Part shown: one piece after another, positions 2,221 to 58,304 of the stretch
How positions within the stretch are numbered: position 1 is the first letter of the stretch
Layout: each line of letters begins with the position of its first letter
Virus record (IMG/VR): IMGVR_UViG_3300028800_000002
Location: 32,001-96,000 of that record
Source of the DNA: a virus
Length of the DNA stretch: 64,000 nt
Reading direction: 5' to 3' (one strand)
Made by a program: the position numbers and the translations under genes
Notes under the pieces: generated by a model
The model's input: only the letters and a program-made list of their open reading frames with translations
The model's database searches: none
What the model was told of the DNA's origin: nothing

Positions 2221-2247
2221 CCGAGGCAATAAGGGAGGTAAAGGAGA
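2221..2247 (+). promoter_or_regulatory. Variant copy of the phage promoter/RBS motif
   Basis: CCGAGGCAATAAGGGAGGTAAAGGAGA resembles CGGGAATAAGAAAGGTAGAAGGAGA at 10085-10117 (-); it ends 9 nt before the ATG at 2257. Confidence 0.5.
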
Positions 2248-2256
2248 CTAGCCAAT

Positions 2257-2721
2257 ATGGCCGCTAGGCGCCCTATTCTTTCGAAGTATCCTCATCTGCG
2301 CGCAGTGCTGCAAAATGATGCCAGGGCCAATGCCGAGTTCAATGCAGCGTTGAATGAGTGCTCCTCTCAAGAGTCTTCCTCTGCGGAGCTCAACCAAGCC
2401 TTGGAGGAACTAAGAAGATCAGAATCCAACTTGCAGGAGCAATTCAATAAGGCCACCTCCGCTGAAAGAACCTTAGAGAAGTCGATTCGCTTCATCCGTT
2501 TATTGGGGGAGTTACTCGAGGCGCAGACGAATTTTAGTCCTTACACAGAGGACTTGGCAGAGAAGAGAAAATACAACATTGAATTTAGCCCAGCGCAGAT
2601 TAGGCTAGCCCTTCGTTGGTATTGGGACGTTCTTGGGTCTGCGATGGAGAATTCAATTACCCGTTCTGTAGTTTTTGATCCAGCAGCGGAGCGCGAAGAT
2701 GACAATGATCCCACCCAATAG
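2257..2721 (+). CDS. Hypothetical coiled-coil protein
   Basis: SD GGAGA; heptad-like N-terminal half. Confidence 0.65.
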   Translation: MAARRPILSKYPHLRAVLQNDARANAEFNAALNECSSQESSSAELNQALEELRRSESNLQEQFNKATSAERTLEKSIRFIRLLGELLEAQTNFSPYTEDLAEKRKYNIEFSPAQIRLALRWYWDVLGSAMENSITRSVVFDPAAEREDDNDPTQ

Positions 2722-2998
2722 GCGCTTCTTACCAACCCCTAGCGGGCAACTAGTATGCATCGATCATCGGTGCTCCGCCGTTGTAGATGATGACTCTGTT
2801 GAGTTTGCTCGCAAGCTTCAAGAGGTTTTGAACTCATATACTCAAGATGGCTACACGATGCAGACGATGATCCCTCGAGATAAAGATCAGGGATTGGTGG
2901 TCGTCTTTCAGAGGGTGAGCCTGATGGATACTACTGAAACAGCACAAGGGGAGCGGTCGCCAGTCGTGGCTCCCCCATCACAAGGAACGAGGCATTGA
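2699..2998 (+). CDS. Hypothetical protein
   Basis: Tight packing with neighbours; no recognisable motif. Confidence 0.55.
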   Translation: MTMIPPNRRFLPTPSGQLVCIDHRCSAVVDDDSVEFARKLQEVLNSYTQDGYTMQTMIPRDKDQGLVVVFQRVSLMDTTETAQGERSPVVAPPSQGTRH

Positions 2999-2999
2999 C

Positions 3000-3590
3000 A
3001 TGGATGAGGCAGTTATAGCTAGTCAAATTGATCCGAGAATCAAAGAGCTGCGGCTCAAGGACATACAGCGTGAGCAGTGCGCGTGGTCATTGAGCAACTT
3101 CGGGGAGCAAACTACTGGAAGGATGGCCCTCGGCCTCATCGAAGAGTTGGGCGAGGTAGAAGAGGCTTGGGCAGAGGACAACACAGAGAAGCTCTTCGAC
3201 GCCATCGGCGATGTTGGCATTTACATGCTCAACTACTGCAACATCGTAAACTGGGATATTGCTAAGATTTTTGCTGCGCGCACCCCCTGTAACCCTGACG
3301 CTCAAAGATATCCACAACGTGTAACACCATTGATGCGGGCTATCGCCCACCATCAGCTCAAGGGAGAGCAGAATATCCGTGGTGGCAGCGCCCATCATGC
3401 AAGGCAAATGGAGCTAACGCTGTGCCATGTGCTGTATCAGATCGATCAGCTGTCGTATCGGGCCATGCCCTGTGGGGATTTCTTCACCATCTTGGATTCG
3501 GTTTGGGTAAAGGTCAGCAAGCGCGACTGGGTGAAGAACCCTGACAACGCGGATGTGGTGGCAGAGGAGCAGGAGATCAAAGATGCCTAA
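3000..3590 (+). CDS. MazG-like NTP pyrophosphohydrolase
   Basis: LGLIEELGEVEEA...LFDAIGDVGIYMLNYC matches the all-alpha NTP-PPase EExGE...DxxxY pattern. Confidence 0.8.
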   Translation: MDEAVIASQIDPRIKELRLKDIQREQCAWSLSNFGEQTTGRMALGLIEELGEVEEAWAEDNTEKLFDAIGDVGIYMLNYCNIVNWDIAKIFAARTPCNPDAQRYPQRVTPLMRAIAHHQLKGEQNIRGGSAHHARQMELTLCHVLYQIDQLSYRAMPCGDFFTILDSVWVKVSKRDWVKNPDNADVVAEEQEIKDA

Positions 3591-4338
3591 TGGAGGTATT
3601 CTCACAGGCCCTGAAATTCGAAATGCCATCTATGCAGGGGACATTGAAATTGACCCGCTTGTTGGCCTCGAAGAAGGGACCTACGTCAATCCTGCCTCGT
3701 ATGACCTGACCCTTGGCAATAGGGTAGCAGTCTACTCACGTGCAGTCTATGCAGTGCTAGGTGGCGCGCATCGGGAGACCGACTCTAGCTTCTCAGAGGA
3801 TGAGATGCAGCGCATTGAACTTTGCATGGGTAATAACTTGTATCCTGATCCAACTAGAGTGTTGGATTCCAAACTTGAGCAGCATGCGCTCGAATTTACT
3901 ATGTACCCAACTAATGGTTGGTGGCTCAAGCCGGGAATTGGCTACCTCATGCATACGGCGGAGCGCGTAACTACCAAACGGTACGTGCCAGTGCTGGATG
4001 GAAAGTCCTCGATTGGGCGGCTTTTTATCACGGCCCATATCACCGCCGGTTATGGGGACCCTGGCTTCGATGGGCAGTACACTCTCGAAGTGGTGGCGAC
4101 ACATCCGGTGCTTGTTTATCCGGGCATGCGATTCTGCCAGATTCGATTCCACACACCCGTTGGAGAGCTTCTTGAGTATGGACATCGAGGTCATTACACC
4201 GGCAAGGCGTCAATGGGCCCTGTACCGTCTATGGCGTATCTCCAATTCACCGAACAGAGCGGCGACTCAACTGGGATCAATGCTGCTCCGGCGTCAGTCA
4301 ATGCCTGTTGGTCTGGGAGAGGATGCCACAATGGCTGA
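3583..4338 (+). CDS. dcd: dCTP deaminase
   Basis: NPASYDL, GKSSIGR, TAGYGDPGFDGQYTLE, YPGMRFCQI motifs of the dCTP deaminase/trimeric dUTPase family. Confidence 0.88.
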   Translation: MPNGGILTGPEIRNAIYAGDIEIDPLVGLEEGTYVNPASYDLTLGNRVAVYSRAVYAVLGGAHRETDSSFSEDEMQRIELCMGNNLYPDPTRVLDSKLEQHALEFTMYPTNGWWLKPGIGYLMHTAERVTTKRYVPVLDGKSSIGRLFITAHITAGYGDPGFDGQYTLEVVATHPVLVYPGMRFCQIRFHTPVGELLEYGHRGHYTGKASMGPVPSMAYLQFTEQSGDSTGINAAPASVNACWSGRGCHNG

Positions 4339-7539: not shown

Positions 7540-7551
7540 TATGATCGTTGC

Positions 7552-8393: not shown

Positions 8394-9050
8394 ATGCCCG
8401 TCGACTTCCAGGTCTGTTTTCCTCAGGAGACCGCGAAGATCAGTAAGGTCAGGACTGTCCCAGGGCTGGCCGTGCGCACGCTGGATATCTATGGCGATGA
8501 CTTCTTGGCAGCGGAGGATGTGCTGCTCAATCAGGTTTCAGTTCCATCGTTCATTGTGCTCAGTAAGAACCGGCTCTTGGCGGAGGTGCCGCAACTGCTG
8601 ATTTCTTCCACCATAACCTCAGTGATGGTTCTCAGTCGGCGTTTGCTGATCTCCTCGCGCAGCTACATTCGTTTCAATATCGGCCGAACTCCGAGCAAGA
8701 CACGCGGCATTTTGAAGTTGATGCAACTGTTCTTGAAGCTGCTGCTGACTACTCCGGGCTCCGACATCTTTGCCCCAAAGTCTGGAGGAGGGGCACTAGT
8801 GCATCTTGGGCAAAGCGTGAGCACTGACGAGGGGACTGATATCGTAGCCGACTTCATAGTAAGCGTAGATTCAACGGCTCGTCAAATAGTGCAAATACAA
8901 GGGCGCACTCAGTCAGCGCCGCCCGACGAGCGACTGCTGTCGGCGAAGGTCTTGTCGGCTGGATTCAACAAGAACGAGACAGCCATCGTGGTGAGTATTG
9001 AGTTGACCTCGCAGGCAGGTGTCAGCGCTGTTGCCCGCTTCACTGCCTAA
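8394..9050 (+). CDS. Probable baseplate protein (Ig-like N-terminus, gp25-like C-terminus)
   Basis: First gene of the structural run. LLLTTPGSDIFAPKSGG...ERLLSAKV...VSIELTS resembles the gp25/GPW family. Confidence 0.6.
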   Translation: MPVDFQVCFPQETAKISKVRTVPGLAVRTLDIYGDDFLAAEDVLLNQVSVPSFIVLSKNRLLAEVPQLLISSTITSVMVLSRRLLISSRSYIRFNIGRTPSKTRGILKLMQLFLKLLLTTPGSDIFAPKSGGGALVHLGQSVSTDEGTDIVADFIVSVDSTARQIVQIQGRTQSAPPDERLLSAKVLSAGFNKNETAIVVSIELTSQAGVSAVARFTA

Positions 9051-9063
9051 TGGGTAGCTAAAC

Positions 9064-9128
9064 AGTGCGCACGCCGCAAGGCGTGCCCTTGCCTGAGTGG
9101 CAACTTTCTCTTGCGAGACAACGCAGCT
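9064..9128 (-). ncRNA. Candidate structured small RNA (three hairpins plus closing stem)
   Basis: Hairpins at 9069-9086, 9089-9103 and 9107-9118, closable by 9064-9068/9123-9128. Promoter-like motifs on the - strand at 9128-9135 and 9170-9181. Confidence 0.35.
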
Positions 9129-9203
9129 CTTATCTTAGTGATTCGCGCAAATGCTATGGACTCAAAATACTTATGCCCGAACCCTGTCTGGAATTGAGGA
9201 GCT

Positions 9204-9235
9204 AAAAAGAAGAACCAGCTTGTGGCTAGTTCTTC
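9204..9235 (-). terminator. Intrinsic terminator of the lipoprotein gene
   Basis: GAAGAAC..GTTCTTC stem followed by T5 on the - strand, 11 nt after the stop at 9247. Confidence 0.8.
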
Positions 9236-9246: not shown

Positions 9247-10080
9247 TTAGCAAGATACCGCTCCATGCGCTCCGTAGTACTCCGTGCAACAACTGGTTTG
9301 ACAGTTAGCGCAGGATGCATGCAATGGATCGATCTCGCAACTGCCTCCCCATGCATAGCAGGCGCTTATGCATGCGTTGTACTCGGCTTCCACCAACGTG
9401 GATCCGCCAGTACCCTGGCTCGCTCCACCCGTTGATGATTTTCCACCGGTTGTCAGTGCACCACCAGTGCCTTGGTTTCCACCAGTAGTTGATGCGCCGC
9501 CAGTATTAGATGCTCCTCCAGTGCCTGCGTCAGGGCAGCCATAGGTGTTTAGGCAGATTTGGTAGTCTGCGGGGTTTCCGATAAGTCCTTCGCAGCCCTG
9601 CTTGGCAACGTCCAAGCATGTGGCATTTCCGCCAGTGCCCAGGGCACCGCCAGTCCCAAAAGAACCTCCAGTGGTTTTTGCTCCACCCGTCCCTTGGTTA
9701 GACTTGCCTCCAGTGGCAGGTGTTCCGCCAGTAGCCGGTGAGCCACCAGTAGTTTTTGTGCCACCTGTTGCCTGTGTGGTGCTAATTGAACTGGAACCTC
9801 CTGTTGCCTGCTGCCCGCCTGTGGTCGGTAGCGTTGTAGCTTCCCATGTATTTCCACCGGTGGATGAGGCGGTTGATGTCGGCGCGTTAGTTGAACCACC
9901 GGTAATGGTCTGAGATGTGTTTGATGATCCGCCTGTTGCATCTGGTTGAGTTGTAGTTTGTACTGCCGACATCCCTGCTACGTTGTCTATTACGGAGGGA
10001 GGTGGGGCTGCCACATCAACGTTGCCGCAGGCAGCCATAGCCATGGACAGCAGTAAACCTTCGAGGAATTTAGTAGTCAT
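9247..10080 (-). CDS. Gly/Thr-rich, Cys-rich lipoprotein (myxobacterial style)
   Basis: Lipobox MAMAA-C; 20 xTGG repeats; a 4-Cys block and an 8-Cys C-terminal block; own SD, promoter motif and terminator. Confidence 0.8.
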   Translation of the reverse strand: MTTKFLEGLLLSMAMAACGNVDVAAPPPSVIDNVAGMSAVQTTTQPDATGGSSNTSQTITGGSTNAPTSTASSTGGNTWEATTLPTTGGQQATGGSSSISTTQATGGTKTTGGSPATGGTPATGGKSNQGTGGAKTTGGSFGTGGALGTGGNATCLDVAKQGCEGLIGNPADYQICLNTYGCPDAGTGGASNTGGASTTGGNQGTGGALTTGGKSSTGGASQGTGGSTLVEAEYNACISACYAWGGSCEIDPLHASCANCQTSCCTEYYGAHGAVSC

Positions 10081-10084: not shown

Positions 10085-10117
10085 TTCTCCTTCTACCTTT
10101 CTTATTCCCGAATTTTC
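10085..10117 (-). promoter_or_regulatory. Phage promoter/RBS element, copy 1
   Basis: Reads GAAAATTCGGGAATAAGAAAGGTAGAAGGAGAA on the - strand; 30 of 33 positions match 54015-54046. Confidence 0.7.
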
Positions 10118-10151
10118 GGTGTTCTTACATGCTATGCTATGTCTAAGCACA

Positions 10152-32572: not shown

Positions 32573-32587
32573 GCCTGACTCCTTTGC

Positions 32588-34613: not shown

Positions 34614-34628
34614 AAGCCTTGAACTTTC

Positions 34629-35302: not shown

Positions 35303-35305
35303 GCG

Positions 35306-37376: not shown

Positions 37377-37385
37377 GGTCTCCTC

Positions 37386-39440: not shown

Positions 39441-39446
39441 AGAATG

Positions 39447-39476
39447 AAAAGGGGGCCTCCCGTAAAGAAGGCCCCC
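39447..39476 (-). terminator. Terminator-like hairpin between ssb and polA
   Basis: GGGGGCCT..AGGCCCCC followed by TTTT on the - strand, 6 nt before the polA ATG. Confidence 0.65.
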
Positions 39477-39489
39477 ACTCCTGTGTTTG

Positions 39490-40734: not shown

Positions 40735-40775
40735 TTGTTCTGCTTTCTATTGCCACTCTGGGCGTTCTATCAATG

Positions 40776-41756: not shown

Positions 41757-43216
41757 TAGCGAGGCTTTCCGGCAAGGGTAGGCGTGGTGGCGAAGTGGAT
41801 AGGGTGGTCCTCTCTCTTTCTGGATTCGGAAGAGAGCTTTGACTTACTTGGTCCAGCAGCTTTTGCCAGCGCCGCCTGGCCGCTAGCCTTTTCGTCTTGT
41901 CTGTCGTCGCGAGCTTTTGCGCTTTCAATCTCCTTTGAGCTCAGGTTACGGATGTAGCTGAAGTCAGTTGCTGGTACACCGTAGATTTGGCAACCGTCGA
42001 AACGGAACTCGCGAGCACCGCCCACTACCATGGTGATCTTTGGCTTGTTGATGTCGGCATCTGGGTTGCCCTCGATCTCCTTTGGATCCTCATTGATAAC
42101 GCGGATGGCGGCTGTAACGTCCTGTCCGATAGCGTCTGAGTACGCTATTTCGTCGAGGTTCGCCCCTTTGTGCGCGGCTGCTGTGCGTGTGGCTTGCATG
42201 GTGACGACCAGAGGAGTTTTGGTTTCGAGGACCATCTGCCTGGCAGCCCTCGAGATGTTCTGGACTCGGAAGTTGTCCTTCTGTCCGCGTGATCCTTTGT
42301 TGTCGCTCATCAAGTAGAGACCGTCGATGAATACGATGTCCGGCTTGTAGCGCTTCACCTTGGAGGTCAACCATTCGATGGTGTCTCCGTTGTCGGTGTC
42401 TTTTCCGTCCAGACAAATCATGTCCTTGTTGTACCGGCGAACGTCCCTGGCTAACTCCAACAGCTGCGTTAGGCGAGCACGTTCGTAGTCCGACAGGCGT
42501 CCCATCCTGAAGTCTTGGTATGGCAATCGTTGTAGGCAGGCACCTACCCGTTTGAAGATGTTGTCTGCTGTCATTTCCTTGGTGTAGATCAATGGGACTT
42601 TCCCATCGTTGAACACATGGGCGATCATCTCGGCCAGAACCCAGGACTTTTTACTCTTTGGCCTGCCGTAGAGGACGATGTAGTCGTCCTGTTCAATGCC
42701 CCCCGATGCCACGTTGAATGGATCCCAGGGCCAAGTGCACACCGCCATATTGACCCCTGACTTCCGAAGGTCATGGTCAGTGATGGAGCGTTCGATGGAG
42801 TCTGCGAAGCTTACGTCATCGCGTTGGCCGTACCCAATGGACAGCACGTTTTGTTGAAGAAGATGTGCGCAGTTCGATGCTGTGACCACCGGATCGTCGT
42901 CCACATCGACGAGTGCTCGGGCGATTGACGCGTTGGTGCGCAGGTGGCGTTCCTTGCGAACCATCTTGAAGTACAACTCTAAGGTTGTTGTTGGATCATC
43001 GCAGAATACAAATTCAGGGAATTGGTCCTTTACAGCATTGATTCCCAACTGCCCGCCCCTATTCGAGCGGTCGCGATGTATTTGCTGCATCAGTTGAAAG
43101 ATGGCGACGCCTTCGCCTGTTTTGAAATCGTCTAGGCTAAGTCCTAGTTCCAGCGCTTTGTCTACAGCACCGTTCCTGATGATGTGACTTAGTAGCGCAT
43201 GTTCCTTGCTAGCCAT
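41756..43216 (-). CDS. dnaB: DnaB-like replicative helicase
   Basis: Walker A variant GRPKSKKS, TKEM, Walker B VFIDG, TMQATR, YSDAIGQD. Confidence 0.85.
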   Translation of the reverse strand: MASKEHALLSHIIRNGAVDKALELGLSLDDFKTGEGVAIFQLMQQIHRDRSNRGGQLGINAVKDQFPEFVFCDDPTTTLELYFKMVRKERHLRTNASIARALVDVDDDPVVTASNCAHLLQQNVLSIGYGQRDDVSFADSIERSITDHDLRKSGVNMAVCTWPWDPFNVASGGIEQDDYIVLYGRPKSKKSWVLAEMIAHVFNDGKVPLIYTKEMTADNIFKRVGACLQRLPYQDFRMGRLSDYERARLTQLLELARDVRRYNKDMICLDGKDTDNGDTIEWLTSKVKRYKPDIVFIDGLYLMSDNKGSRGQKDNFRVQNISRAARQMVLETKTPLVVTMQATRTAAAHKGANLDEIAYSDAIGQDVTAAIRVINEDPKEIEGNPDADINKPKITMVVGGAREFRFDGCQIYGVPATDFSYIRNLSSKEIESAKARDDRQDEKASGQAALAKAAGPSKSKLSSESRKREDHPIHFATTPTLAGKPR

Positions 43217-43249
43217 GCTGCGGTCTCCGTTGCTGAAAAGGGGAAGTGA

Positions 43250-43340
43250 TACTGCGATTAGGCCAAGGTGACGTCAACCTAATCGCAGTAGACCACAACA
43301 TGTTGTGCATGTTGTCACGTATGGCACCAAGCGCTGGTGC
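43250..43340. repeat. Cluster of three inverted repeats
   Basis: 13-bp perfect inverted repeat at 43250-43262/43278-43290; 14-bp palindrome at 43294-43307; 6-bp hairpin at 43324-43340. Confidence 0.85.
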
Positions 43341-43341
43341 G

Positions 43342-43677
43342 TTAGACTGATGGAGCTTCGTTAGCAGTAGTTGCGTGCTCGCCTATTCCTTCAGGCGGCT
43401 TGCTGGCTAACGAACCAAAGGCAGTCGGGGATGCTGAGTCGGTTACGAAGACTACCTCTGCGATATCCTGCTCCATGCAGTCCTTTAGGTGCGCCAACGC
43501 CTCCATGGTATCTTTCGACCATCTGGAATGGACGCTGGTTTCTCCATAGGTGTTACCAGTTTTCATGTTTACGAAGGCAGCGTGCCCAGTGAGGCTAGGG
43601 GCAGCGCTGGCGAAACTTATCGCATCGATGTCGAGTAGCGTAACGGCGTCAAACGCCGGTGTTCCTTGTACTGGCAT
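43342..43677 (-). CDS. Hypothetical protein
   Basis: Packed in the replication operon. Confidence 0.6.
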   Translation of the reverse strand: MPVQGTPAFDAVTLLDIDAISFASAAPSLTGHAAFVNMKTGNTYGETSVHSRWSKDTMEALAHLKDCMEQDIAEVVFVTDSASPTAFGSLASKPPEGIGEHATTANEAPSV

Positions 43678-43679
43678 GG

Positions 43680-43976
43680 TTACCCTGTCTTGCTTCCGTT
43701 GAATTCCGCCCAGCTGTCGCGGAGGAGCTCAAGCGCTTTTGCAAATGCAAGCTCCCCCGCCTTATTGATGACTGCTTCCCTTTGGTCACAGGCCAGGCTG
43801 ACTGTGACCGAGACTTTCATGGAGCCGAAATCTAGGCTCTCCGATAGACCGATGGCTACTCGGGCTGGGTCCTTTGCACCCTTGGAAAGCAACTTTGTGT
43901 AGGCGTCTCCGGTGATTTGCCCAGTCTCAGAGACAGCGCCCTCAGCCCCTTCTCTGACTTTGCTGTAGTTGCTCAT
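43680..43976 (-). CDS. Hypothetical protein
   Basis: ATGA-coupled start MSNYSK. Confidence 0.6.
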   Translation of the reverse strand: MSNYSKVREGAEGAVSETGQITGDAYTKLLSKGAKDPARVAIGLSESLDFGSMKVSVTVSLACDQREAVINKAGELAFAKALELLRDSWAEFNGSKTG

Positions 43977-44446
43977 ACGATGTTGATTGGGTCGGGCTTG
44001 TGGTAGCTGCGGCTGACTGTTCTGAAGTACTGGATGCACTCCTTGGGTATCTTGCCGTTGGCAATTGCGGCGTCTACGATGGCTGGGTCGACCTTGAGCA
44101 CTTCAACTTTGCTCGTTGATCCACCGCATTGTAGAAATAGTTCTTCGCCAATCTCGTCACGCATCTTAGCTGCATCGTACTTGGTACTGACCGAGAAGTT
44201 CTCGAAAGGACCGCAGGTAACTTCTCTTGTCCGCACTACATTTGAGGCTATCTCTAGCGCTGTGTTGTATCGATCAACTAGATCAGCTAATCGAATGAAG
44301 ACCTCAGGGTTTTCCGCCTTGATGGCTTCAATTTCCTGTCGTAGGTCGACCACCTCCTGTACTTCTGGGATTTCCGTGATCGGGATCCGTTGGGCTTTCG
44401 TAGGAGTGGGACCACTTGTAATTGCACCGCGTTTTTTACTGGCCAT
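43973..44446 (-). CDS. Hypothetical protein
   Basis: SD GAGGA; N-terminal coiled coil. Confidence 0.65.
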   Translation of the reverse strand: MASKKRGAITSGPTPTKAQRIPITEIPEVQEVVDLRQEIEAIKAENPEVFIRLADLVDRYNTALEIASNVVRTREVTCGPFENFSVSTKYDAAKMRDEIGEELFLQCGGSTSKVEVLKVDPAIVDAAIANGKIPKECIQYFRTVSRSYHKPDPINIV

Positions 44447-45341
44447 TATTCTCGTCCTCTATTTCCATCTCATCAAGTATGTCCTCAGGGACGTCCATTG
44501 CGTAGGATTCAGGGATTACTCCTTCAGTCTCTTCGTAGTAACGGTCGTAGATCATCTTTGCCAAGAGCATGTCGCTCGTGAACTCACGGAAGATGTTCCC
44601 ATCGGTTGTGTCGTGCCTACTGTCGTACACCGTGGCAATGTCAAAGGTTGGAACCATGATGTATCGAACCTTGTTCTGTTCGATTGGAGTTACCCTGACT
44701 CCTTTGACTACTCTCCCCCATTCGTGCTTCTTTGGGGAGACTATTGCGCGCGACCCAGCGCCGGGTATCTGCACTTCCAGTGGGTTGCCGCGAAGCTTTT
44801 TGATATTCACGGAATACCCAGCTAAGAAAGAAGCGGCTGGTTGCCCCATGGCCACGATGATGATCGGGTCGATGCTGTAGATTTCTTGAAATAAGCGCGG
44901 GGAGCACTTCTCAAGTTGTGCAGCTGTCGGCGGTTGCTCTTGGTAAATGATTCCTCCAGGTCTCCCATTTCTCTCTGGATACATCTTGGGAGATCCGTCA
45001 TTTCCTAGGACTGGGGCACATGCTCTGCAGGCGGTCAGGTTGGTGATGTAGTAGTTTTTTATGCGGTAGTGGTCCATGCATTTGCGCAATAGGCGACCAC
45101 CCTTGTCATCGATGTATGGCCTCCCATAGCGCTCGTCGATGTTGCTAGGACTTCTGCCCAGGAATAGGATTCCGCGCTCTTTACCTTCCCCGAATACTAC
45201 CTGCCCGGCGTTGGCCTGCCGTTGCTTTCCTAGCTCGCATTTACTGCAGTTACCCCACTCTTGTTCCAGCACTTGAATGGGTTTGCTGAAGTCTGGGATG
45301 AAAGCAGGCGTTTCGCTACCGATTGATGAGTCCTCTGCCAT
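44436..45341 (-). CDS. Family-4 uracil-DNA glycosylase-like Fe-S protein with degenerate catalytic motifs
   Basis: CSKC..VVFGEG..ILFLGRSP..GRPY..YITN..ACR..PIIIVAMG; the HP motif B is not recognisable. Confidence 0.75.
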   Translation of the reverse strand: MAEDSSIGSETPAFIPDFSKPIQVLEQEWGNCSKCELGKQRQANAGQVVFGEGKERGILFLGRSPSNIDERYGRPYIDDKGGRLLRKCMDHYRIKNYYITNLTACRACAPVLGNDGSPKMYPERNGRPGGIIYQEQPPTAAQLEKCSPRLFQEIYSIDPIIIVAMGQPAASFLAGYSVNIKKLRGNPLEVQIPGAGSRAIVSPKKHEWGRVVKGVRVTPIEQNKVRYIMVPTFDIATVYDSRHDTTDGNIFREFTSDMLLAKMIYDRYYEETEGVIPESYAMDVPEDILDEMEIEDENNGQ

Positions 45342-45810
45342 TCTGGTCTCCAGGCAAGTTTGTAGCCAGCACAATGTTGGAGTTACGTGCGCTGCGCTCT
45401 TTGGCTGCTGCCTCCGCTGAGTCTATCGCCTTTTTGATGAAGTCCTTGTACTGGGTGTAGTCTCCGCCTTTTGCGTCAAGGTCCTCAAGGTAGTACAGTT
45501 GCGCTCCCGTTAGATTGAACTGCACCGGGCATGGGCAGAGCGTTGAATCCATCCTGGACGAGTAATGAAGTTTGCCCATGCGTGTTCCACCGCTTTGTAG
45601 TGGTGTCATTTGCATCGGGCACCCGTAGTCAAAGCACGTGAGGCACTTGAGAAGCCCACCGCGCCCATGGACTTCATCGATGTATTCTCGCGATCCGATA
45701 GCCTGTGCGATGAACTTCCCAGTAGTGCAAGTGAGAATTACCCAATGCACTTTTATGGCTGCCGTCTCGGTACCCATAGATCTGTTGTCTGCTGCGCTGC
45801 TTGATTCCAT
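45316..45810 (-). CDS. Hypothetical protein
   Basis: Operon packing; start uncertain (45810 or 45777). Confidence 0.55.
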   Translation of the reverse strand: MESSSAADNRSMGTETAAIKVHWVILTCTTGKFIAQAIGSREYIDEVHGRGGLLKCLTCFDYGCPMQMTPLQSGGTRMGKLHYSSRMDSTLCPCPVQFNLTGAQLYYLEDLDAKGGDYTQYKDFIKKAIDSAEAAAKERSARNSNIVLATNLPGDQNGRGLINR

Positions 45811-47534
45811 GCTGAATTTCCTTGTCTTCTTAGGGTTGCTGGGTGGCCAATGAGCTTGTACCTGAAGGGCCCGCCTTCTTCGACGGGCCAATCACGCAAG
45901 TGTCTCCGAAGTTTTCGGCATTGGCTGATGAGGGGTCCTAGGTCGTCTTCGAGGAACACGAGCTCAGAGTGCTTTTTATCCCTGGGGCGTCCCATGATCT
46001 GCTGCAAGGTATTCTTGTCCGACATGGGCTCGCTGACCACGATGGCTGAGAGGTTTTTATCGTCCAGCCCTTCCTTGCCGTACTTCATGATGGCAAAAAT
46101 GACCTTGCGCTCACGCAGCATCTTGAAACGGTCCTCTGGCTTTACTGCCTCTGTGAATAGCCCTGAGTCGCTCTTCATCGTGAGGAGTTCTTTGAGAAAT
46201 TCCCGTTGTCTCTGCCGGTATAGTCGCTCAGTCTTTCTCCAAATTTCAAATTGTTGCAGTATCAGCACGTAGCTATCCCTGCGTTCCTCGAACGCTGCGC
46301 GCTTCGCCGGCGGTAGCGTACTTCTGGTCAGATTTCTTTCTATCTCGGCAAGCGTTGTGGCTAACTTCTGCGCCGCCTTTGGGGTTAGTGCAATGGGCAG
46401 TAATTGCTCGCCGACCTCGGTCGGAGTTGGGTATGGGATGTCCGAGTACAGTAGCGTGCTTGGATCTTGCCTGGACCAAAGCGTCATGAGGTTGATAACT
46501 TCATCTACAGAGTACGACAGTACTAGGACCTTGTGCTTGGCATCCACCAGCCGTTGTACTTCGGGCAACACCGTGCAGGTCAATCGCTCGCGGTTATTCC
46601 CAAAGTGGCTTGCGATCTTTCCCAGATGCAACTCACCGTTCTTGTCGAACACTTCCTTCTTCACTTTCTTGTCTTCCAGGTCAAGCTTGTGACCAGTCCA
46701 CTTGAAGGAAATGGCTGGTGGGCAATTCTGTATGACGTCTTTGAAGATGATTTCCCCCACGTGGTGCTGGCAGATTACGTGGGATCCATCATTGCGCCAA
46801 GGGGTGGCAGTGAGTGCCAAGCGGTACCCATAGAAGAGTGGCGCTGACTTTGAGAAGGTGGGTGCATTGACGTGGTGACCTTCGTCCCAAACTACAAGTC
46901 CAAACCTTCTCCTGATTCTCTCAGGCATTGTGTCGGCCCAGCGTGCCAGCGTTTGGTAGGTGGCCATTACAATGGCCTTGTCCCAGTCCTTGGTTTGTCC
47001 CTGTATGAGACCGATGCCCCCAGGAACTATCAGGTGCTTGTCTATTTCTTCCTGCCATTGACGGAGCAGATGCGTGTTGTCTACTGCGATGATGGTGGGC
47101 ACCTGAAGTATGGAGCTAAAGTGAAGAGCAACGACTGTCTTCCCCTTCCCGCACGCCAACTGGAGGGTTCCTCCGTTGGCGAGCAAGAGAGCTTCTATTG
47201 CACGTGACTGTAAATCGCTGCCGGTTTGTTGTAGTAACCCGCCAGGTCCTGGCTTCATATCCAGGCACACCTTGCTTTGAACCCCTGTTCGTCGGAAGGA
47301 CTTGGGCCTGCAGTCAATGCAGGTGAAGTTCAAATCCTCAGGTTTCCAGAATGCGCGTGGAACGACTAGGTGGTGTTCCGATTCATCCCAGAGCTGGAGA
47401 GTTTTTACTTCGTCCCTTTCGGAGATCTCAAACTCGAGGGCGTTCTTCACGCCCTCTACGTTGATTTGACTCTTGGGTACATGCAGCATGGTGTCGATGT
47501 ACCCTAGGTTCGGATCACGCCTAATGAGCTTCAT
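45753..47534 (-). CDS. Superfamily 2 helicase (UvsW/XPB-like)
   Basis: LACGKGKT, VWDEGHH, LTATPWRNDG, GKEGLD, QQIMGR. Confidence 0.9.
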   Translation of the reverse strand: MKLIRRDPNLGYIDTMLHVPKSQINVEGVKNALEFEISERDEVKTLQLWDESEHHLVVPRAFWKPEDLNFTCIDCRPKSFRRTGVQSKVCLDMKPGPGGLLQQTGSDLQSRAIEALLLANGGTLQLACGKGKTVVALHFSSILQVPTIIAVDNTHLLRQWQEEIDKHLIVPGGIGLIQGQTKDWDKAIVMATYQTLARWADTMPERIRRRFGLVVWDEGHHVNAPTFSKSAPLFYGYRLALTATPWRNDGSHVICQHHVGEIIFKDVIQNCPPAISFKWTGHKLDLEDKKVKKEVFDKNGELHLGKIASHFGNNRERLTCTVLPEVQRLVDAKHKVLVLSYSVDEVINLMTLWSRQDPSTLLYSDIPYPTPTEVGEQLLPIALTPKAAQKLATTLAEIERNLTRSTLPPAKRAAFEERRDSYVLILQQFEIWRKTERLYRQRQREFLKELLTMKSDSGLFTEAVKPEDRFKMLRERKVIFAIMKYGKEGLDDKNLSAIVVSEPMSDKNTLQQIMGRPRDKKHSELVFLEDDLGPLISQCRKLRRHLRDWPVEEGGPFRYKLIGHPATLRRQGNSAWNQAAQQTTDLWVPRRQP

Positions 47535-47542
47535 TGGGAGTC

Positions 47543-48073
47543 TTATCCCTCGTTCGGTTTATTTCCTCCACCACCAAATATCTGATTGTCGAAGAAGCTG
47601 CTAATGGTGTGGCCTACGGATTTCCCGATAGACCGAGTTACTTCGATGGCAAGTCGCCTGCCGATGCTTTGCCCTGGGACTACTGGCTGAGGCACTGATA
47701 GGTACGGCGGCATGTAGTGGTTCACCGGCATCATCTGCTGATATGCCTGCCCACTATGCGGCTGTCCTGGCTGCGGGTACGCGGTTGGCTGATACGGTGG
47801 GCTCCATTGGGGTCGGGGGACGGGTTGACTATATGGCACAGCTGGTCTTGTCAAGTTGGCTGTTGGTACATGCACCGTATTGCCTGCATTCCTTACGGCC
47901 TGCAGGTGCGAGGCGCAGGATGACGCGAAACTACATCTGTCCCTTACGTGGCTTCCATTCTCCTCGTTCAAAAACGCTGGATCGTGTCCTCCTACACATT
48001 CAGCGGCTGCGCTGCTGTACTGCTTGCCGAAGCATCCTGGTTTTTCGTCCACTACTTGGTTCAATTTCAGCAT
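47543..48073 (-). CDS. Hypothetical protein with N-terminal Cys cluster and P/Q-rich linker
   Basis: PGCFG..EC..RC..SC; SD AAGGAG. Confidence 0.65.
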   Translation of the reverse strand: MLKLNQVVDEKPGCFGKQYSSAAAECVGGHDPAFLNEENGSHVRDRCSFASSCASHLQAVRNAGNTVHVPTANLTRPAVPYSQPVPRPQWSPPYQPTAYPQPGQPHSGQAYQQMMPVNHYMPPYLSVPQPVVPGQSIGRRLAIEVTRSIGKSVGHTISSFFDNQIFGGGGNKPNEG

Positions 48074-48232
48074 GATTCTCCTTAGTGCTACCGGCGTATC
48101 CTCTGCTCTAGTTCTCTTTTCCCAGTTCTTCTGTGTTGTTTGCAGGTCTTGCCCCCGATATTCCCCTAAACCTGAAGACCTAGTACTATTTCAATGGTAT
48201 AAACTCCTAGTTGCGCTAACGGAGAAGCATCG

Positions 48233-53764: not shown

Positions 53765-53779
53765 CTAACAAGGAGCTAC

Positions 53780-53813
53780 GAAAAAACCCCTGCTCGAGCG
53801 TAGGGGTTTTTCC
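53780..53813. terminator. Bidirectional terminator
   Basis: AAAAAACCCCT-gctcgagcgt-AGGGGTTTTT between convergent genes. Confidence 0.85.
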
Positions 53814-53822
53814 GGTTCTGAC

Positions 53823-53984
53823 TTAGGCCTGCGCAGGATTCTGTGCGAACGCCTGCGGTGCCGGCTGCGGCTGTTGTACTTTTGTTGCGGCCTTGATTCC
53901 GGTGATGCGACCGGCAACGAAGGCAGCAGTAGTAGCAACAACGCCGATGCTTGAATATACAACGATGGTCCAGGTTTTTGACAT
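53823..53984 (-). CDS. 53-aa single-pass membrane protein (not in ORF track)
   Basis: MSKTWTIVVYSSIGVVATTAAFVAGRITG...; stops 9 nt before the terminator. Confidence 0.5.
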   Translation of the reverse strand: MSKTWTIVVYSSIGVVATTAAFVAGRITGIKAATKVQQPQPAPQAFAQNPAQA

Positions 53985-54014
53985 GTGATTTCGTGTGTAG
54001 CCAATGCGGGCTAC

Positions 54015-54046
54015 TTCTCCTCTACCTTTCTTATACCCGAGTTTTC
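54015..54046 (-). promoter_or_regulatory. Phage promoter/RBS element, copy 2
   Basis: GAAAACTCGGGTATAAGAAAGGTAGAGGAGAA, near-identical to 10085-10117. Confidence 0.7.
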
Positions 54047-54055
54047 AGTATATTT

Positions 54056-55492
54056 TCAGGCAACTTCGGATTGGACCAGATCGTCGAGCTCGATGATTTC
54101 TCCCCACTCAGCAGGCTTTGCTTTGTAGGGTGTTGGCACGATGCACCAAATGAACTGCATGTTCTGTGGGGCTACATCAGGCGCCACACCAGCACCGTCT
54201 GTTAGGTACATCGTCATGTGCGGTCTTGGGAAGAACTCTGTGTCGACAAAGTTGATGGCTTGTCGGAAGTCTGTGCCACCTCTTCCCAATATTTCAATAG
54301 AGCGCAGATCCGCTGGAGTCACCAGGATGGGGGTGCGCTTACCATCCGTATCCGCCTCCATGAACCAGGCATGTTGGATTCCTGTCTGCAGCATAACGTC
54401 AGACATGACCTTGAGCGCGTCCGCGATTTGTCCTCTCCCCATCGATCCAGAGCTGTCTACGATGAAGAATAGAACCGGGTCGTAGCCAATGAGTCCCGGT
54501 AAGGTAATCCCCCTCAAGTAGGAGCGCTTCGAGGGGCGCCGCATGCTGTAGTCAAGTCCACCGCTGCGGATGCGCCCAATGGACAGGCGAGCCATGTTGG
54601 CCAGCTTGCTTCTCCATGGGACATCAAATACGGTTTCACTGACTTCCACCAGTTCAGCCCAACTTCCTGGTAAGGTTCCTCGACCTTGCTGGGATTCCAT
54701 GTGCTGCTTGATGGCCCGCGCTGTCTCTCTGGCTACGTTCTTGCAGTTTGCTTCTGACCGGCCTTTTTCTGCGCTCTGCTCCTTCTCCAGCTCCTTGCCG
54801 ATTGGGTTACCTGCTATGCCACCGCAGCATCCGGATAGAATTCTGGGTGAACCTTTTCCTTCAGCCTCACAGTCAGGGCAGTGGCCGCCCTCGCCGTTTT
54901 CTCCTTCCCCGTCACCCTTTCCGTGCTGGCACTTCGCGGGTTTGCTGCTCGATTTGCTCTTGCTTTCATACTGCTCGAGGAGCTTGTAGTACGCATCAGC
55001 CGTCAACCCTTCTGGGAATCCGTACTGTTCTGGCATGAGCGCCCAGTCCGGGAACTCCCACATGGGTTCAGTGACTATGTTCGATCCGTTCGACGACTTC
55101 TGGCCAGTGACACGCACCTGTTTCGTTTGCGCGCGCATTGAGCTGTTGATGAATAGATCCCCAGCGCGGTTGAATCGTTTGGGATCTTCGTAGCCAGATC
55201 CTCGCCGTACGTGAAGGAGTTGGGCATGCATGCACTCATGCATTAGGCCTGTAGCGACTACAATAGCGCTAGATGCTTCTACCCAAGCTGGGTCGTATAC
55301 GAGCACCAAGTTTGCACTTACTCCCATGGGCCCACCTACGAGCTTCATGAGATTTTCTACTGGCGATGGCACCAACGCGTACAAGGTCGAGCACATGTAG
55401 GGAGCGTATTGCTTCACATATGCTCGACCGATGACGAGAGGCGAGGCTTTTGCTCGCGCGTGCCACCCCTTACCTGAGGGGTTGCCTGCCAT
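54056..55492 (-). CDS. Putative metallopeptidase-vWA protein (DUF2201-like)
   Basis: HECMH (HExxH), SGCCGG, MIDAS VDSSGSM, GRGGTDF. Confidence 0.9.
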   Translation of the reverse strand: MAGNPSGKGWHARAKASPLVIGRAYVKQYAPYMCSTLYALVPSPVENLMKLVGGPMGVSANLVLVYDPAWVEASSAIVVATGLMHECMHAQLLHVRRGSGYEDPKRFNRAGDLFINSSMRAQTKQVRVTGQKSSNGSNIVTEPMWEFPDWALMPEQYGFPEGLTADAYYKLLEQYESKSKSSSKPAKCQHGKGDGEGENGEGGHCPDCEAEGKGSPRILSGCCGGIAGNPIGKELEKEQSAEKGRSEANCKNVARETARAIKQHMESQQGRGTLPGSWAELVEVSETVFDVPWRSKLANMARLSIGRIRSGGLDYSMRRPSKRSYLRGITLPGLIGYDPVLFFIVDSSGSMGRGQIADALKVMSDVMLQTGIQHAWFMEADTDGKRTPILVTPADLRSIEILGRGGTDFRQAINFVDTEFFPRPHMTMYLTDGAGVAPDVAPQNMQFIWCIVPTPYKAKPAEWGEIIELDDLVQSEVA

Positions 55493-55495
55493 TAT

Positions 55496-56749
55496 TTAGG
55501 TCCTTTGCTCCAAGTATTTACCGAGGCCGCTGTCTGCCAATGGCACAAGTACCAGATTGGCTGCTGCCTTGATTGCGGATTTCCCGGAAGCGTGCCCTAG
55601 ACGTTCCTTGATGAGTCCTTCCACCGCTGGAATTACAATGTCAGACAGCTCAGCGTCAAGCAGCTTGGCAATTGCTTTCCATGCCAGTGGGGCAAGGTCC
55701 TCTTGTTCTGCTCGAGTGGGGCGCTGTCTGACGTAGGCTACAGCCCCAGTATAGGCCGCAAGTACAACGTCCAGACGATCTTTGTTGATTTTCCATTTGC
55801 CGTTGAGAACGTCGAGGGGCTTGGGAAGGTCCGCCTCATGGAAGTAGCGAATGAGTTCTTCAGCAGCCCCGGATCCTACGCAGGCTTCAATCATGGCATC
55901 TCGGATTCCATCGCTCTTCTCTAGGATTCTTGCGGTGGTCCATGCCCTAGTGGCAAAGTCCCATGTGCGGTGAGAGGGCCATGCCTTGCCACAGTTCGGG
56001 TCACTCATTGGCGGGCGTTTGTGCAGCAGTGATGGATTGCTCTCGATGAAGCCAGCGAACAGGCTTTGTGCTTCAGGGTAGAGGTTTGGCCACTCATCGA
56101 TGACAGCCTTCTCGATGTCGTCCAGCGAACCTTGCAGGCGCACCGCGGAAGATCCCATAAGCCACGTGGTCCATTCGCGCGCATCTGGCCCTGGGTCTGT
56201 GATGTGGATGAATCGATTCGCTAGCGGTGGTGAAAGACGGAAGCCACAGGCTGCAATTTCCTCTGGATTCATGGCTGCAAGGATGCGCACACGGTGGGGA
56301 ATGTCCAAGTCTCCGGTGTGTCGTTCATGGATCAAGCTCATCAGCGCTCCCTGCGTTGCAGGCATAGCGCCGTTGATTTCATCGAAGAACAGAATTCCTA
56401 CCTTCTCTTTGACCATTCTCCGTATCTGAGGAAGAGGGGCGATATGGGTTGCATCACCTTTCCCGTCAGGGATGAGAGCTCCACCGAAGTCTTCTGGAGG
56501 ATGGGGCGCTGCGTAGATTGTGGACAGGTGGGTTTGCAGGGATGCAGCAATTCCCTTGATGCGTGCCGTCTTGGCGATGCCGGAATCCCCTTCAATGAGC
56601 AGTGGTAATCCCCATTTGCAGTCTGGCTTGCCTGGGTAGCCATCCATCGGCGCGGATACGGAGACTTCAATAATCTCATCGACCTCTGAGCTCTTGAGTG
56701 TGGCTCCAGACAATGCGCTTGCGGGTGCGGTAACTTTCTTAGCGGCCAT
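55496..56749 (-). CDS. MoxR/AAA_5-type AAA+ ATPase
   Basis: Walker A EGDSGIAKT, Walker B FFDEI, AAMNP, PLANRF, PSHRTW. Confidence 0.9.
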   Translation of the reverse strand: MAAKKVTAPASALSGATLKSSEVDEIIEVSVSAPMDGYPGKPDCKWGLPLLIEGDSGIAKTARIKGIAASLQTHLSTIYAAPHPPEDFGGALIPDGKGDATHIAPLPQIRRMVKEKVGILFFDEINGAMPATQGALMSLIHERHTGDLDIPHRVRILAAMNPEEIAACGFRLSPPLANRFIHITDPGPDAREWTTWLMGSSAVRLQGSLDDIEKAVIDEWPNLYPEAQSLFAGFIESNPSLLHKRPPMSDPNCGKAWPSHRTWDFATRAWTTARILEKSDGIRDAMIEACVGSGAAEELIRYFHEADLPKPLDVLNGKWKINKDRLDVVLAAYTGAVAYVRQRPTRAEQEDLAPLAWKAIAKLLDAELSDIVIPAVEGLIKERLGHASGKSAIKAAANLVLVPLADSGLGKYLEQRT

Positions 56750-57355
56750 TCATGATCTCCATTTTCTTTCGAATATATCGTCTACAGTTTGTACGTCGAA
56801 GCCAGCTACGGGTTCAATCCCTTCCGGCCATAGTGGGTTGTCCCTGTTTTCATCGAGATGGTACAAGCACCCAATGCAGATGTGCTTTGGGTCATCGTTG
56901 TCCATGTTGACAAATACTGGGCTGTGCCTGCAGTCTGGGGCTCGTTCCGACCAGTGTATTTCTCCAAAGTGAAGAAGCCCCACTAGCTCATTGGGCAGCA
57001 CATCGCTGCGGCAGATATCGCACAGTATTATGCCGTTTGGATGTTCGAGCGGTGGTAGATCCTCGTGCATTTCAACGAGCTCTTCTTCTGCACTCTCCCA
57101 ACAATCGAAGCAATAGAATGCTGGTTCATACCTGCAGTTACCATCGGAGGCCAATACATCCAGGTGTTGTACTTCTGCACCCACGATCACTGGCCGTACG
57201 ATTCGAAGTAGGAATACTTCTGCAACCATTCCGATTTCTTCGATACACTGAACGCAGAAGCAACCGGTGGGCTCTTCCAGTATTAGCTCTTCGGTGTCTT
57301 CAGAATCGTCCTCCACTTCCTCTTCCTCTATGTGGTCAGCTACAACCTGCTCCAT
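56750..57355 (-). CDS. Acidic protein with four CxxC pairs
   Basis: CVQC, CFDC, CDIC, CIGC. Confidence 0.7.
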   Translation of the reverse strand: MEQVVADHIEEEEVEDDSEDTEELILEEPTGCFCVQCIEEIGMVAEVFLLRIVRPVIVGAEVQHLDVLASDGNCRYEPAFYCFDCWESAEEELVEMHEDLPPLEHPNGIILCDICRSDVLPNELVGLLHFGEIHWSERAPDCRHSPVFVNMDNDDPKHICIGCLYHLDENRDNPLWPEGIEPVAGFDVQTVDDIFERKWRS

Positions 57356-57951
57356 AGGTGCGTCCTTTCTCTTCCGTGCGTTCTTTCAATGCTTCGCCAC
57401 CTTTGCTGCACAGTCTCCAGGCGGGTGTCTGGTCCAAAATTCCCAGCTGTGTCGTAGTCCCAAAGTAACAGCATTGCCTCTATGAAGTCGTTGTATTTTC
57501 CGTCGTGAACGCGCCGCTCGAAGTTTGTTCCTTCTGGCAGGCAGGATCCCTCTGGATATTGCGCGCGAAGGACTAGTTCATGTTCGAACAAATCGTCGAC
57601 CAAGTCCTCAGTATCCACGCAGAGCCCAATCCACCCAGCTTCCCCAGGCTCCAGGTATTCACTACCAAGCCACTTGCACCAGGTACCTGGCTTGGATTCC
57701 TCAACGAGCACCTCTAAGTCTCGTTGGTTGCAGAAGGTTACGAACCCTTTTTGGTCTAGGACCCTAGCTCTAATTCCTCCAACGGCCCTACCGGCAACTG
57801 GTAGGTATAGCCCTTGGATGGTCCATTCACGTTCGGGTATTGTTGGGTCTATGAATGTAACTCCCACCAGACCCATTGTATTTTCTAGTATGTTCGTGCC
57901 GGGCAGTACTGCCAGTTCCCTTTGCTCAACTGCAAACGGGTTTACGAGCAT
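57340..57951 (-). CDS. Hypothetical protein
   Basis: SD GGAGG; operon packing. Confidence 0.65.
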   Translation of the reverse strand: MLVNPFAVEQRELAVLPGTNILENTMGLVGVTFIDPTIPEREWTIQGLYLPVAGRAVGGIRARVLDQKGFVTFCNQRDLEVLVEESKPGTWCKWLGSEYLEPGEAGWIGLCVDTEDLVDDLFEHELVLRAQYPEGSCLPEGTNFERRVHDGKYNDFIEAMLLLWDYDTAGNFGPDTRLETVQQRWRSIERTHGRERTHLWSRL

Positions 57952-58045
57952 TTGCCACCTCCATCTCGAGCAGGAAATCTTGCATTCTCAGGATGATTCC
58001 ATTCAGTAGGCCAGCGATAAACGCCCAGATCAGGAGAGCCTTCAT
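57926..58045 (-). CDS. 39-aa hydrophobic peptide
   Basis: MKALLIWAFIAGLLNGIILR...; GAGATAAGA 5 nt upstream. Confidence 0.45.
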   Translation of the reverse strand: MKALLIWAFIAGLLNGIILRMQDFLLEMEVANARKPVCS

Positions 58046-58052
58046 GTAATTC

Positions 58053-58217
58053 TTATCTCGGATTGTTCCTGGTGTTTTTTGCTGCCTGTGCCGATTCGTT
58101 TTGGTTGACACCGAACAGACTTGCCACCAAAGTCTCGTAGCGTTGGCCGGTACTTTGTGAAGTAACTTGCTTCTTTTTGCCTCGTTGAGTAGTCTTAGTA
58201 GGCACACGCTTTTCCAT
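58053..58217 (-). CDS. 54-aa basic peptide
   Basis: MEKRVPTKTTQRGKKK...; GAGATAAGA 6 nt upstream. Confidence 0.45.
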   Translation of the reverse strand: MEKRVPTKTTQRGKKKQVTSQSTGQRYETLVASLFGVNQNESAQAAKNTRNNPR

Positions 58218-58304
58218 CAAAGCTCTTATCTCGGTGTTTCTGCAGTCCTTGCGCATATTCCATGAGCGGTTGCCTGGAGGGTGCGGTTATACTCTGGAGA
58301 ACGC

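Follow-up and report, generated by a model that had tools for sequence, protein, structure and literature searches.

A recurrent motif in the uncultured phage recorded as IMGVR_UViG_3300028800_000002 is best explained as a family of two-box promoters that serve non-structural genes and are most likely read by a sigma factor encoded by the phage itself. The DNA analysed (hereafter the window) is a stretch of 64,000 nucleotides (nt), bases 32001-96000 of a single contig of 186,443 bp with a terminal overlap of 127 bp, which is a complete phage genome from the IMG/VR database. The parts of this reading differ in weight. That the sites function as promoters appears very probable from their sequence and conservation, and their reading by the phage sigma factor is likely; use of the phage core enzyme rather than that of the host is close to an even call. 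An initial annotation had proposed the motif, from nine strings in the window, as a non-sigma70 promoter for the phage RNA polymerase, and all nine strings were found where it had placed them and on the same strand. The boxes, their orientation, their position at the heads of transcription units, their conservation and their occurrence in places without a Shine-Dalgarno sequence support the promoter part of that proposal well.

The two long copies from which the motif had been recognized, at window positions 10085-10117 and 54015-54046 on the minus strand, agree at 30 of 33 positions with one 1-nt insertion or deletion and rank first and second genome-wide. A mismatch scan with the long copy as query retrieved a larger family, all on the minus strand; about 16-20 sites belong to it in the 186,443-bp genome, and the two long copies are its best members. 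Alignment of 11 seeds gave the two-part pattern G-Y-A-A, 15 nt, (C)GGG-N-ATAAGAA, 3-4 nt, TAGA, in which GGG-N-ATAAG was invariant across the seed set. The resulting consensus reads GYAA, 15 nt, (C)GGGGATAAGAA, 3-4 nt, TAGA, usually followed by AGGAG and ATG. Positions are numbered by analogy with sigma-28 promoters, a numbering that would place the transcript start (+1) at the A of TAGA. The consensus drawn up in the initial annotation had caught the -10 part and missed both the -35 box (GYAA, 19 nt upstream of ATAAG) and the T/A start dinucleotide, and the GAAA with which it opened turned out to be only a weak A-rich feature of the spacer, present in about a quarter to a third of the sites.

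Because AGGAG is the ribosome-binding site, the scoring matrix was rebuilt without this Shine-Dalgarno sequence, as two boxes joined by a flexible spacer. It retrieved 18 genome sites at ≥14 bits, against a mean of 0.5 (range 0-2) in 20 first-order Markov shuffles, and 31 sites at ≥8 bits, against a shuffle mean of 3.6; the spacer was 15 nt in nearly all strong sites. The minus strand, on which the non-structural genes lie and whose genes occupy about 21% of the genome length, carried 16 of the 18 sites at ≥14 bits. In gene maps based on open reading frames (ORFs), the word ATAAGA occurred at -60 to -11 of 9 of the 71 minus-strand genes (expected, 0.3; P = 6e-11), and k-mer enrichment found no comparable word upstream of the 176 plus-strand genes. 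Likewise, unseeded expectation-maximization (EM) recovered the motif in about 13 of 41 minus-strand intergenic gaps and found no comparable motif in plus-strand gaps. Enrichment upstream of genes, which had been set as a check on the promoter reading, is far above chance on the minus strand in all three kinds of analysis.

The geometry was also tested in a non-circular manner, on sites chosen by the nonamer GGNATAAGA alone in this genome and in two related IMG/VR contigs, G1 (186,879 bp) and G2 (188,971 bp), which share about 71% DNA identity over 64% of the genome. Over the three genomes, 45 such sites lay on the dominant strand and 13 on the opposite one. AA was located exactly 18 nt upstream in 34 of the 45, compared with 0-7 of 45 at other spacer or upstream offsets, excluding the box and the weak A-rich tract before the -10 box. 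At offset -20 there was a G in 33 of these sites, at +13 a T in 33 and at +14 a purine in 43. The family displays the two conserved boxes at fixed spacing that characterize group-3 promoters of the sigma-70 family, together with a -10 box that, like GCCGATAA or GGGTAT, is extended by a G-rich stretch and always has A at -11.

The sites share the orientation of the genes downstream of them and are placed at the heads of minus-strand transcription units. Four clear members lie in the window: P1 and P2 would each drive one small gene, P3 heads the replication module and P4 heads an operon that encodes an ATPase and an HNH-like protein. Outside the window, one cluster of sites lies at 16-29 kb, where the minus strand carries small genes, and another at 149.8-150.3 kb. 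No strong site faces the large plus-strand genes, and no plus-strand site reaches 14 bits inside the window. Plus-strand candidates are limited to a few variants of this motif (genome positions 163802, 174573 and 28752; window position 2240), in which the spacer is longer by one nt or position -12 is C or A. A further plus-strand match at genome 11101-11120 was discarded as a chance occurrence; it is conserved in relatives, but it falls within a conserved coding region and its strand is opposite to that of every other site.

Conservation was analysed in five genomes: this phage, G1, G2, Salmonella phage Arash (OQ632216) and Vibrio phage D69 (OZ195729). Pattern scans of IMG/VR identified three contigs with the motif and the same one-strand bias, G1 and G2 among them, and in these two the boxes are preserved at syntenic positions, between spacers and flanks that have changed. 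Arash carries the form GGTATAAG(T/A)A-N3-TR, with 37 matches on the minus strand versus 2 on the plus strand (reversed-pattern controls, 1 and 2) and a TCCAATA-like box upstream. The exact motif of this phage was not enriched in D69; a search for k-mers with strand asymmetry uncovered there a diverged form, TTCAATA, about 13 nt, TGTTATAAGTAAT, distributed 25 versus 5 by strand. The Arash and D69 motifs share with the present one the ATAAG(T/A)A core, an upstream CAAT-like box, the T(-1)/R(+1) dinucleotide, the bias towards the non-structural strand, and a homologous sigma factor and beta-beta' polymerase. They differ at -15 to -12, which read TGGT in Arash and TTGT in D69 versus GGGG here, in the -35 box, T(C/T)CAATA, and in their longer leaders, which often open with a hairpin. 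The T at -1 and the purine at +1, 7 bases after the G at -7, are kept in all three versions of the motif.

Several sites precede something other than an ordinary gene with a ribosome-binding site. The site at genome 150284 (minus strand) has neither a Shine-Dalgarno sequence nor an ORF after it and precedes a conserved, structured non-coding RNA of about 176 nt (genome 150105-150284, minus strand) with an exposed CCUCCUUCU stretch. RNAalifold predicted 42 base pairs in this RNA from the three genomes, 9 of them with compensatory changes, and its first helix starts 2 nt after the +1 predicted from the motif. In Arash, one site lies 6 nt before a transfer RNA (tRNA)-like gene (Arash record 59003-59076, minus strand). 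In the window, two consecutive conserved ORFs (58043-58217, minus strand) lack a Shine-Dalgarno sequence and have their ATGs 7-8 nt after an ATAAG box; these ORFs, which follow P4 and the site at 58045, are probably translated from leaderless mRNAs starting at the ATG. Since sites stand before a non-coding RNA, a tRNA-like gene and ORFs without Shine-Dalgarno sequences, the signal acts on DNA. The position of the start gains indirect support from the T/R dinucleotide, the first helix of the small RNA and the leaderless ATGs, all of them at the place predicted.

The ~176-nt RNA is followed by two more family sites in tandem, about 220 nt apart, with +1 at genome 150062 and 149820 and a tiny ORF each. 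Specific pairing of this anti-Shine-Dalgarno small RNA with the AGAAGGAG 5′ ends typical of transcripts from this promoter family was considered and rejected, the duplex energy being -14.4 kcal/mol versus -13.95 kcal/mol for all gene starts (P = 0.25). The tRNA-like gene of Arash was identified by ARAGORN, whose call for the anticodon loop is an odd one of two bases. Many Arash and D69 sites are directly followed by hairpins of the GGAG...CUCC type and, together with the leader of P2, they make 5′ stem-loops seem typical of transcripts from these promoters.

As to the reader, the phage genome encodes a bacterial-type RNA polymerase as one fused beta-beta' chain (Pfam Rpb2_6, 5.7e-58; Rpb1_2, 6e-32), the sole RNA polymerase set in the genome. 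The 5′ part of its gene lies at 58305-64000 on the plus strand, divergent from P4, in a frame of about 2131-2144 amino acids (aa) that continues beyond the end of the window. In this protein the phage is closest, among phages in culture, to D69, D148 and D181 of Vibrio and to Arash of Salmonella, with about 32% identity; a megablast comparison of the window with cultured phages gave no match. A second gene, outside the window and missed in the initial annotation, encodes a 253-aa factor of the sigma-70 family (genome 165364-166125, plus strand) and is the fourth gene of a plus-strand operon. Its Sigma70_r3 match in Pfam (2.3e-11) is above the cut-off and its matches to regions 2 and 4 are weak. 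The best NCBIfam models are SigB/F/G (2.8e-10), followed by FliA/WhiG (9e-9), with a full-length alignment to SigB, and the comparison with sigma factors in the PDB gave 1e-5. G1 and G2 encode homologues with 80% identity, Arash one with 32% (gp10, 5e-23) and D69 one with 30%, so that a cognate sigma accompanies the polymerase in all five genomes. The phage polymerase also retains the segment of beta' that aligns to the clamp-helix part of its cellular counterpart, and it is in that aligned part that we take the sigma-binding clamp helices to lie.

The sigma operon is itself preceded by a plus-strand variant of the motif (genome 163755-163805), composed of TTGCAAAC, about 16-17 nt and GGCATAAGAA, which is conserved in G1 and, over the part compared, in G2. 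The plus-strand ORFs of this operon are supported by conservation in G1 and G2, a test by which the longer overlapping minus-strand ORFs are spurious. Of the two plus-strand matches in Arash, one stands before gp9-gp10, and it alone has the exact GGTATAAG core. Mass spectrometry of the Arash virion found beta, beta' and the sigma Gp10 (PMC10585845).

We propose that these promoters would serve early or middle non-structural phage genes as follows. The -35 box, c-G-Y-A-A-a, would occupy -34 to -31 and, after a 15-nt spacer, (C)GGG-G/A/T-ATAAG-AA would form an extended -10 box from -15 to -5, which places an A at -11; T(-1)/A(+1) is conserved as well. The A of TAGA would be the first transcribed base, followed by AGGAG at +4 to +8 and by an ATG at a distance of 13-17 nt from the 5′ end; transcripts from two sites would lack a leader altogether. 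The reader would be the 253-aa phage sigma, most probably as a holoenzyme with the single-chain beta-beta' polymerase, which may be delivered with the virion. Reading by the phage polymerase is plausible given its single fused gene, the co-occurrence of sigma in five genomes and the presence of both in Arash virion preparations; the phage sigma could instead redirect the host core enzyme. A more far-reaching version, which we put forward tentatively and regard as somewhat improbable, is a self-contained system in which the beta-beta' core and its own sigma are packaged and injected, the motif is the early promoter, replication genes are expressed without the host polymerase and the variant before the sigma operon feeds a positive loop. 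If true, it would amount to a minimal alpha-less holoenzyme with a defined promoter, unlike the sigma-less enzymes of the phiKZ type and unlike phages that carry a sigma only, and the same promoter class would also make the anti-Shine-Dalgarno small RNA.

Some results weigh against the proposed promoters and their phage reader. No promoter class was found for the plus-strand, structural genes by EM, by k-mers, in upstream regions with GCAAA or by TATACT-like words, which leaves in doubt the role of the phage polymerase there and its use at the motif. The Arash virion proteome also contains many metabolic enzymes (PMC10585845), and the packaging of polymerase and sigma is for this reason not secure. 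Both the start site and the identity of the reader are deduced from sequence. The fixed distance between the motif and AGGAG plus ATG at most sites could reflect a role at the RNA level. Finally, the Arash and D69 forms, TGGTATAAG and TGTTATAAG, are one base away from an extended -10 promoter of sigma-70 (TGnTATAAT), so the host sigma-70 holoenzyme might use these sites.

The same resemblance counts in favour of early promoters read by the unmodified host RNA polymerase, with either the housekeeping sigma-70 on an extended -10 or an alternative sigma such as sigma-28. The geometry of the motif equals that of sigma-28 promoters, and many phages begin infection on the host enzyme. Nevertheless, we consider this explanation unlikely. 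The sites lack the T at -7 and -12 and the TTGACA-like -35 box of housekeeping promoters: all strong sites have G at -7, where sigma-70 needs T, -12 is mostly G, and the -35 box is GYAA. A scan with the sigma-70 consensus called none of the motif sites, and its 3 matches in the genome compare with 6.8 ± 2.9 in shuffles. The earlier designation as non-sigma70 holds in this sense, the motif being unlike TTGACA-N17-TATAAT, but not for the architecture, which is that of the sigma-70 family, of the group-3 kind. As for host sigma-28, its core CCGA gives way to GGG(G) in this phage and to GGT or TGT in those whose hosts use CCGATAA. Additional conserved positions (-6, -5, -1 and +1) are common to phages of different hosts, and every genome has its own sigma.

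Less probable still is recognition of the motif by the beta-beta' polymerase independently of the phage sigma, whether unaided or through another phage factor, in the manner of the sigma-less polymerases of phiKZ/AR9-type phages. Multisubunit polymerases of jumbo phages do recognize short phage-specific motifs without a sigma (PMC7598289, PMC9209446), and the -10 part and the downstream T/A start could be read by the core or by a specificity subunit. Yet -35 and -10 boxes held a constant 15 nt apart are the hallmark of sigma regions 4 and 2; all five genomes keep a full-length sigma (regions 2-4) beside the polymerase, and the beta' segment at the presumed place of the clamp helices is retained. 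That the conserved block acts on RNA (as a 5′ leader, translation enhancer, nuclease site or operator before the Shine-Dalgarno sequence), or is a mobile repeat spread by recombination, we regard as highly improbable despite the constant distance to AGGAG and the recurring terminator-promoter cassettes described below, because conservation is highest upstream of the predicted start, the motif is also found before the non-coding RNA, the tRNA-like gene and leaderless ORFs with no Shine-Dalgarno sequence following, ATG distances vary widely in Arash and D69, and the flanks show no similarity beyond the motif.

Promoters read by the phage sigma remain the preferred explanation. The individual sites of the window are as follows. 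Promoter P1 (10094-10131, minus strand) is the best site of the genome, at 47.4 bits (36.2 bits with the two-box matrix). Its -35 box is GTAA at 10125-10128, its -10 box GGGAATAAGAA at 10099-10109 and its predicted +1 the A at 10094, within TAGA; AGGAG at 10087-10091 and ATG at 10078-10080 follow in the leader. The syntenic sites in G1 and G2 keep both boxes and vary in the spacer. The gene presumably driven by P1 (9247-10080, minus strand) encodes a 277-aa protein with a lipoprotein-signal-like N-terminus and no family match. Divergently from P1, a plus-strand ORF of 1336 aa has its likelier start at ATG 10143 rather than at GTG 10119 (window 10119-10145), only about 15 nt from the -35 box of P1, and the stretch TAGCATAGCA between that box and the ORF start is kept in G1 and G2.

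Promoter P2 (54023-54060, minus strand; 46.2 bits, two-box 36.4 bits) is conserved in G1 and G2 and consists of GAAA at 54054-54057 and GGGTATAAGAA at 54028-54038, with the predicted +1 at A 54023. A hairpin in its 5′ leader (53997-54014, minus strand), formed by GTAGCC, a 6-nt loop and GGCTAC, would occupy about +10 to +27 of the transcript; its stem is identical and its loop variable in the three genomes. The small hydrophobic ORF that follows (about 73 aa; 53765-53984, minus strand) starts at an ATG, 53982-53984, conserved in the relatives. Promoter P3 (48109-48146, minus strand; 25.3 bits) carries a T-to-A variant at -10 that is also present in G1 and G2. Its parts are GCAA at 48140-48143, TGGGAAAAGAG at 48114-48124 and a predicted +1 at A 48109. 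Downstream of P3 lies the replication module (32244-48073, minus strand), defined by PHROG matches to a helicase, a DnaB-like helicase, a primase, a DNA polymerase, a UvsX-like recombinase and a Cas4-type exonuclease; the refined genome-wide map extends this block to window position 31145.

Promoter P4 (58218-58255, minus strand; 21.2 bits) is nearly identical in G1 and G2, with GCAA at 58249-58252 and CGAGATAAGAG at 58223-58233. Its predicted +1, G at 58218, precedes by one nt an ATG (58215-58217) that lacks a Shine-Dalgarno sequence and would start a leaderless basic ORF of 54 aa (58053-58217, minus strand). This ORF stays open, with 54-61 codons, in all three genomes, and its TAA stop lies inside the ATAAG box that forms the -10 of the following site. 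That site, CCGAGATAAGAA (58045-58084, minus strand; 9.0 bits), is a probable internal promoter, with the ATG at 58043-58045 located 7 nt after the box and lacking a Shine-Dalgarno sequence; its -35 GCAA is 3 nt too far upstream here and correctly spaced in G1 and G2. The remaining operon downstream of P4 (54056-58045, minus strand) includes the ATPase (55496-56749) and the HNH-endonuclease-like protein (54056-55492). On the other side of P4, the start of the polymerase gene is probably the ATG at 58305, with GGAGAA 5 nt upstream, rather than the GTG at 58281. Directly upstream of that gene (58256-58304, plus strand), the sequence GCGG(T/C)TATACTCTGGAGA, which G1 and G2 also keep, may represent a separate promoter for the polymerase, of a different kind.

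Two weaker sites may be variants. One (9163-9200, minus strand; 14.0 bits) combines CTCAAT as -35 with TCGGGCATAAGTA as -10; a terminator hairpin and a T-run precede it, and about 115 nt without an ORF follow (9050-9163), ending in a hairpin. Its positional counterparts in G1 and G2 reach 24-27 bits and drive a gene of about 600 nt (MKLVSW...) that is absent here, and the ORF-less stretch may be either a deletion remnant or a second small RNA. The other (2205-2242, plus strand; 8.7 bits) reads GCAA, 16 nt, GGCAATAAGGGAGG, with a spacer one nt longer, before an ORF at 2257-2721; G2 keeps GCAA, 16 nt, GGTGATAAGGGA. Two strings of the original nine do not belong to the family. GGGATAAGA at 47541-47549 (minus strand), at a stop/start junction, scored -5 with the position weight matrix and is absent in G1; a promoter without a -35 box was rejected there because the site lacks conservation in G1 and the upstream gene's stop codon accounts for it. 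AGATAAGA at 9128-9135 (minus strand), also without a -35 box, scored -8. Of the nine sites in the initial annotation, those at 10085, 54015, 48115 and 58224 thus stand as clear members, each scoring with its -35 box, 58051 as a probable one, 9170 and 2223 (plus strand) only as possible variants, and 47541 and 9128 drop out. The upstream stop named in its caveat is present at 47541 and, as the TAA of the 54-aa ORF, at 58051.

A terminator hairpin, a T-run and AGCTC recur immediately before the -35 box at window 9201-9230 and at genome 18295-18330 and 150100-150125 (minus strand), and D69 has the same TTTTAG-plus-TTCAATA junction. From their sequence, these cassettes appear to be compact terminator-promoter units; they resemble the repeats of promoter plus stem-loop known from T4-type phages.

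Outside the phiKZ group, nearly all knowledge of phages with a cellular-type beta-beta' polymerase comes from metagenomes, and how the enzyme finds its genes is undescribed in the literature that we found. Sigma and promoters go unmentioned in the account of the mReC lineage of beta-beta' polymerase phages (PMC7481178), as do promoters in the paper on the orphan phage Arash (PMC10585845); our literature search found nothing relevant on this promoter or on transcription in Arash-like or mReC phages. The motif would provide a first testable promoter sequence for a little-studied phage group with its own bacterial-type RNA polymerase. Given a promoter that varies within the group and a cultured relative, Arash on Salmonella, the use of a sigma by a fused alpha-less core, the residues that read the G at -7 and the host independence of early transcription become experimentally addressable. 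Annotators could also use it to divide these genomes into transcription units and temporal classes.

Among known systems, the closest likeness is to sigma-28 (FliA) promoters, defined as (-36)TCTAAAG(-30) and (-15)GCCGATAA(-8) (PMC12784957). TAAA-N15-GCCGATAA and GYAA-N15-GGGGATAA have an equal 15-nt gap, a G/C-rich extension directly before a GATAA core, A at -11 and no need of T at -7, and in both cases the sigma is compact and group-3-like, that of the phage matching FliA/WhiG as well as SigB/F/G models. The phage promoters differ in having GYAA instead of TAAA and GGGG instead of GCCG, and in the conservation of G(-7)A(-6)A(-5) and T(-1)/A(+1). Furthermore, the phage-encoded sigma is only distantly related (E ~1e-9, far below family cut-offs), and it would act on replication genes and small genes of the phage rather than on flagellar ones. 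In Gram-positive bacteria, promoters of the SigB/SigF type read GTTTAA-N12-14-GGGTAT. Their -10 box also opens with GGG followed by T/A-A-T, some phage sites reading GGGTATAAG or GGGAATAAG, and SigB/F/G is the best NCBIfam match of the phage sigma; this likeness is one of resemblance alone, and the -35 sequence and the spacing are different.

Late promoters of T4, TATAAATA, lack a -35 box and are read by gp55, and their use requires gp33 and the sliding clamp together with the host core enzyme. A single base separates them from the core TATAAGTA of Arash and D69, and in both systems a sigma-like factor of the phage gives, or would give, specificity. Judged by the promoter, the sigma and the genes served, the present system is different: there is a -35 box, the sigma has regions 2-4 and the genes are non-structural, in place of a single TATAAATA before late structural genes. 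Promoters of the phiKZ/AR9 type are likewise phage-specific, serve a phage-encoded cellular-type polymerase and follow a virion/early-gene logic (PMC7598289, PMC9209446). Those phages, however, have two split polymerases, no sigma and short, single-element AT-rich or template-strand motifs, in contrast to the one fused beta-beta' chain, true sigma-family protein and two-box promoter found here. A survey of jumbo phages listed phages with a polymerase but no sigma, or with a sigma but no polymerase (PMC7824862), and the present group, unlike them, carries both. Taken together, the motif is a new promoter specificity of a known general kind, tied to an unstudied polymerase-plus-sigma system.

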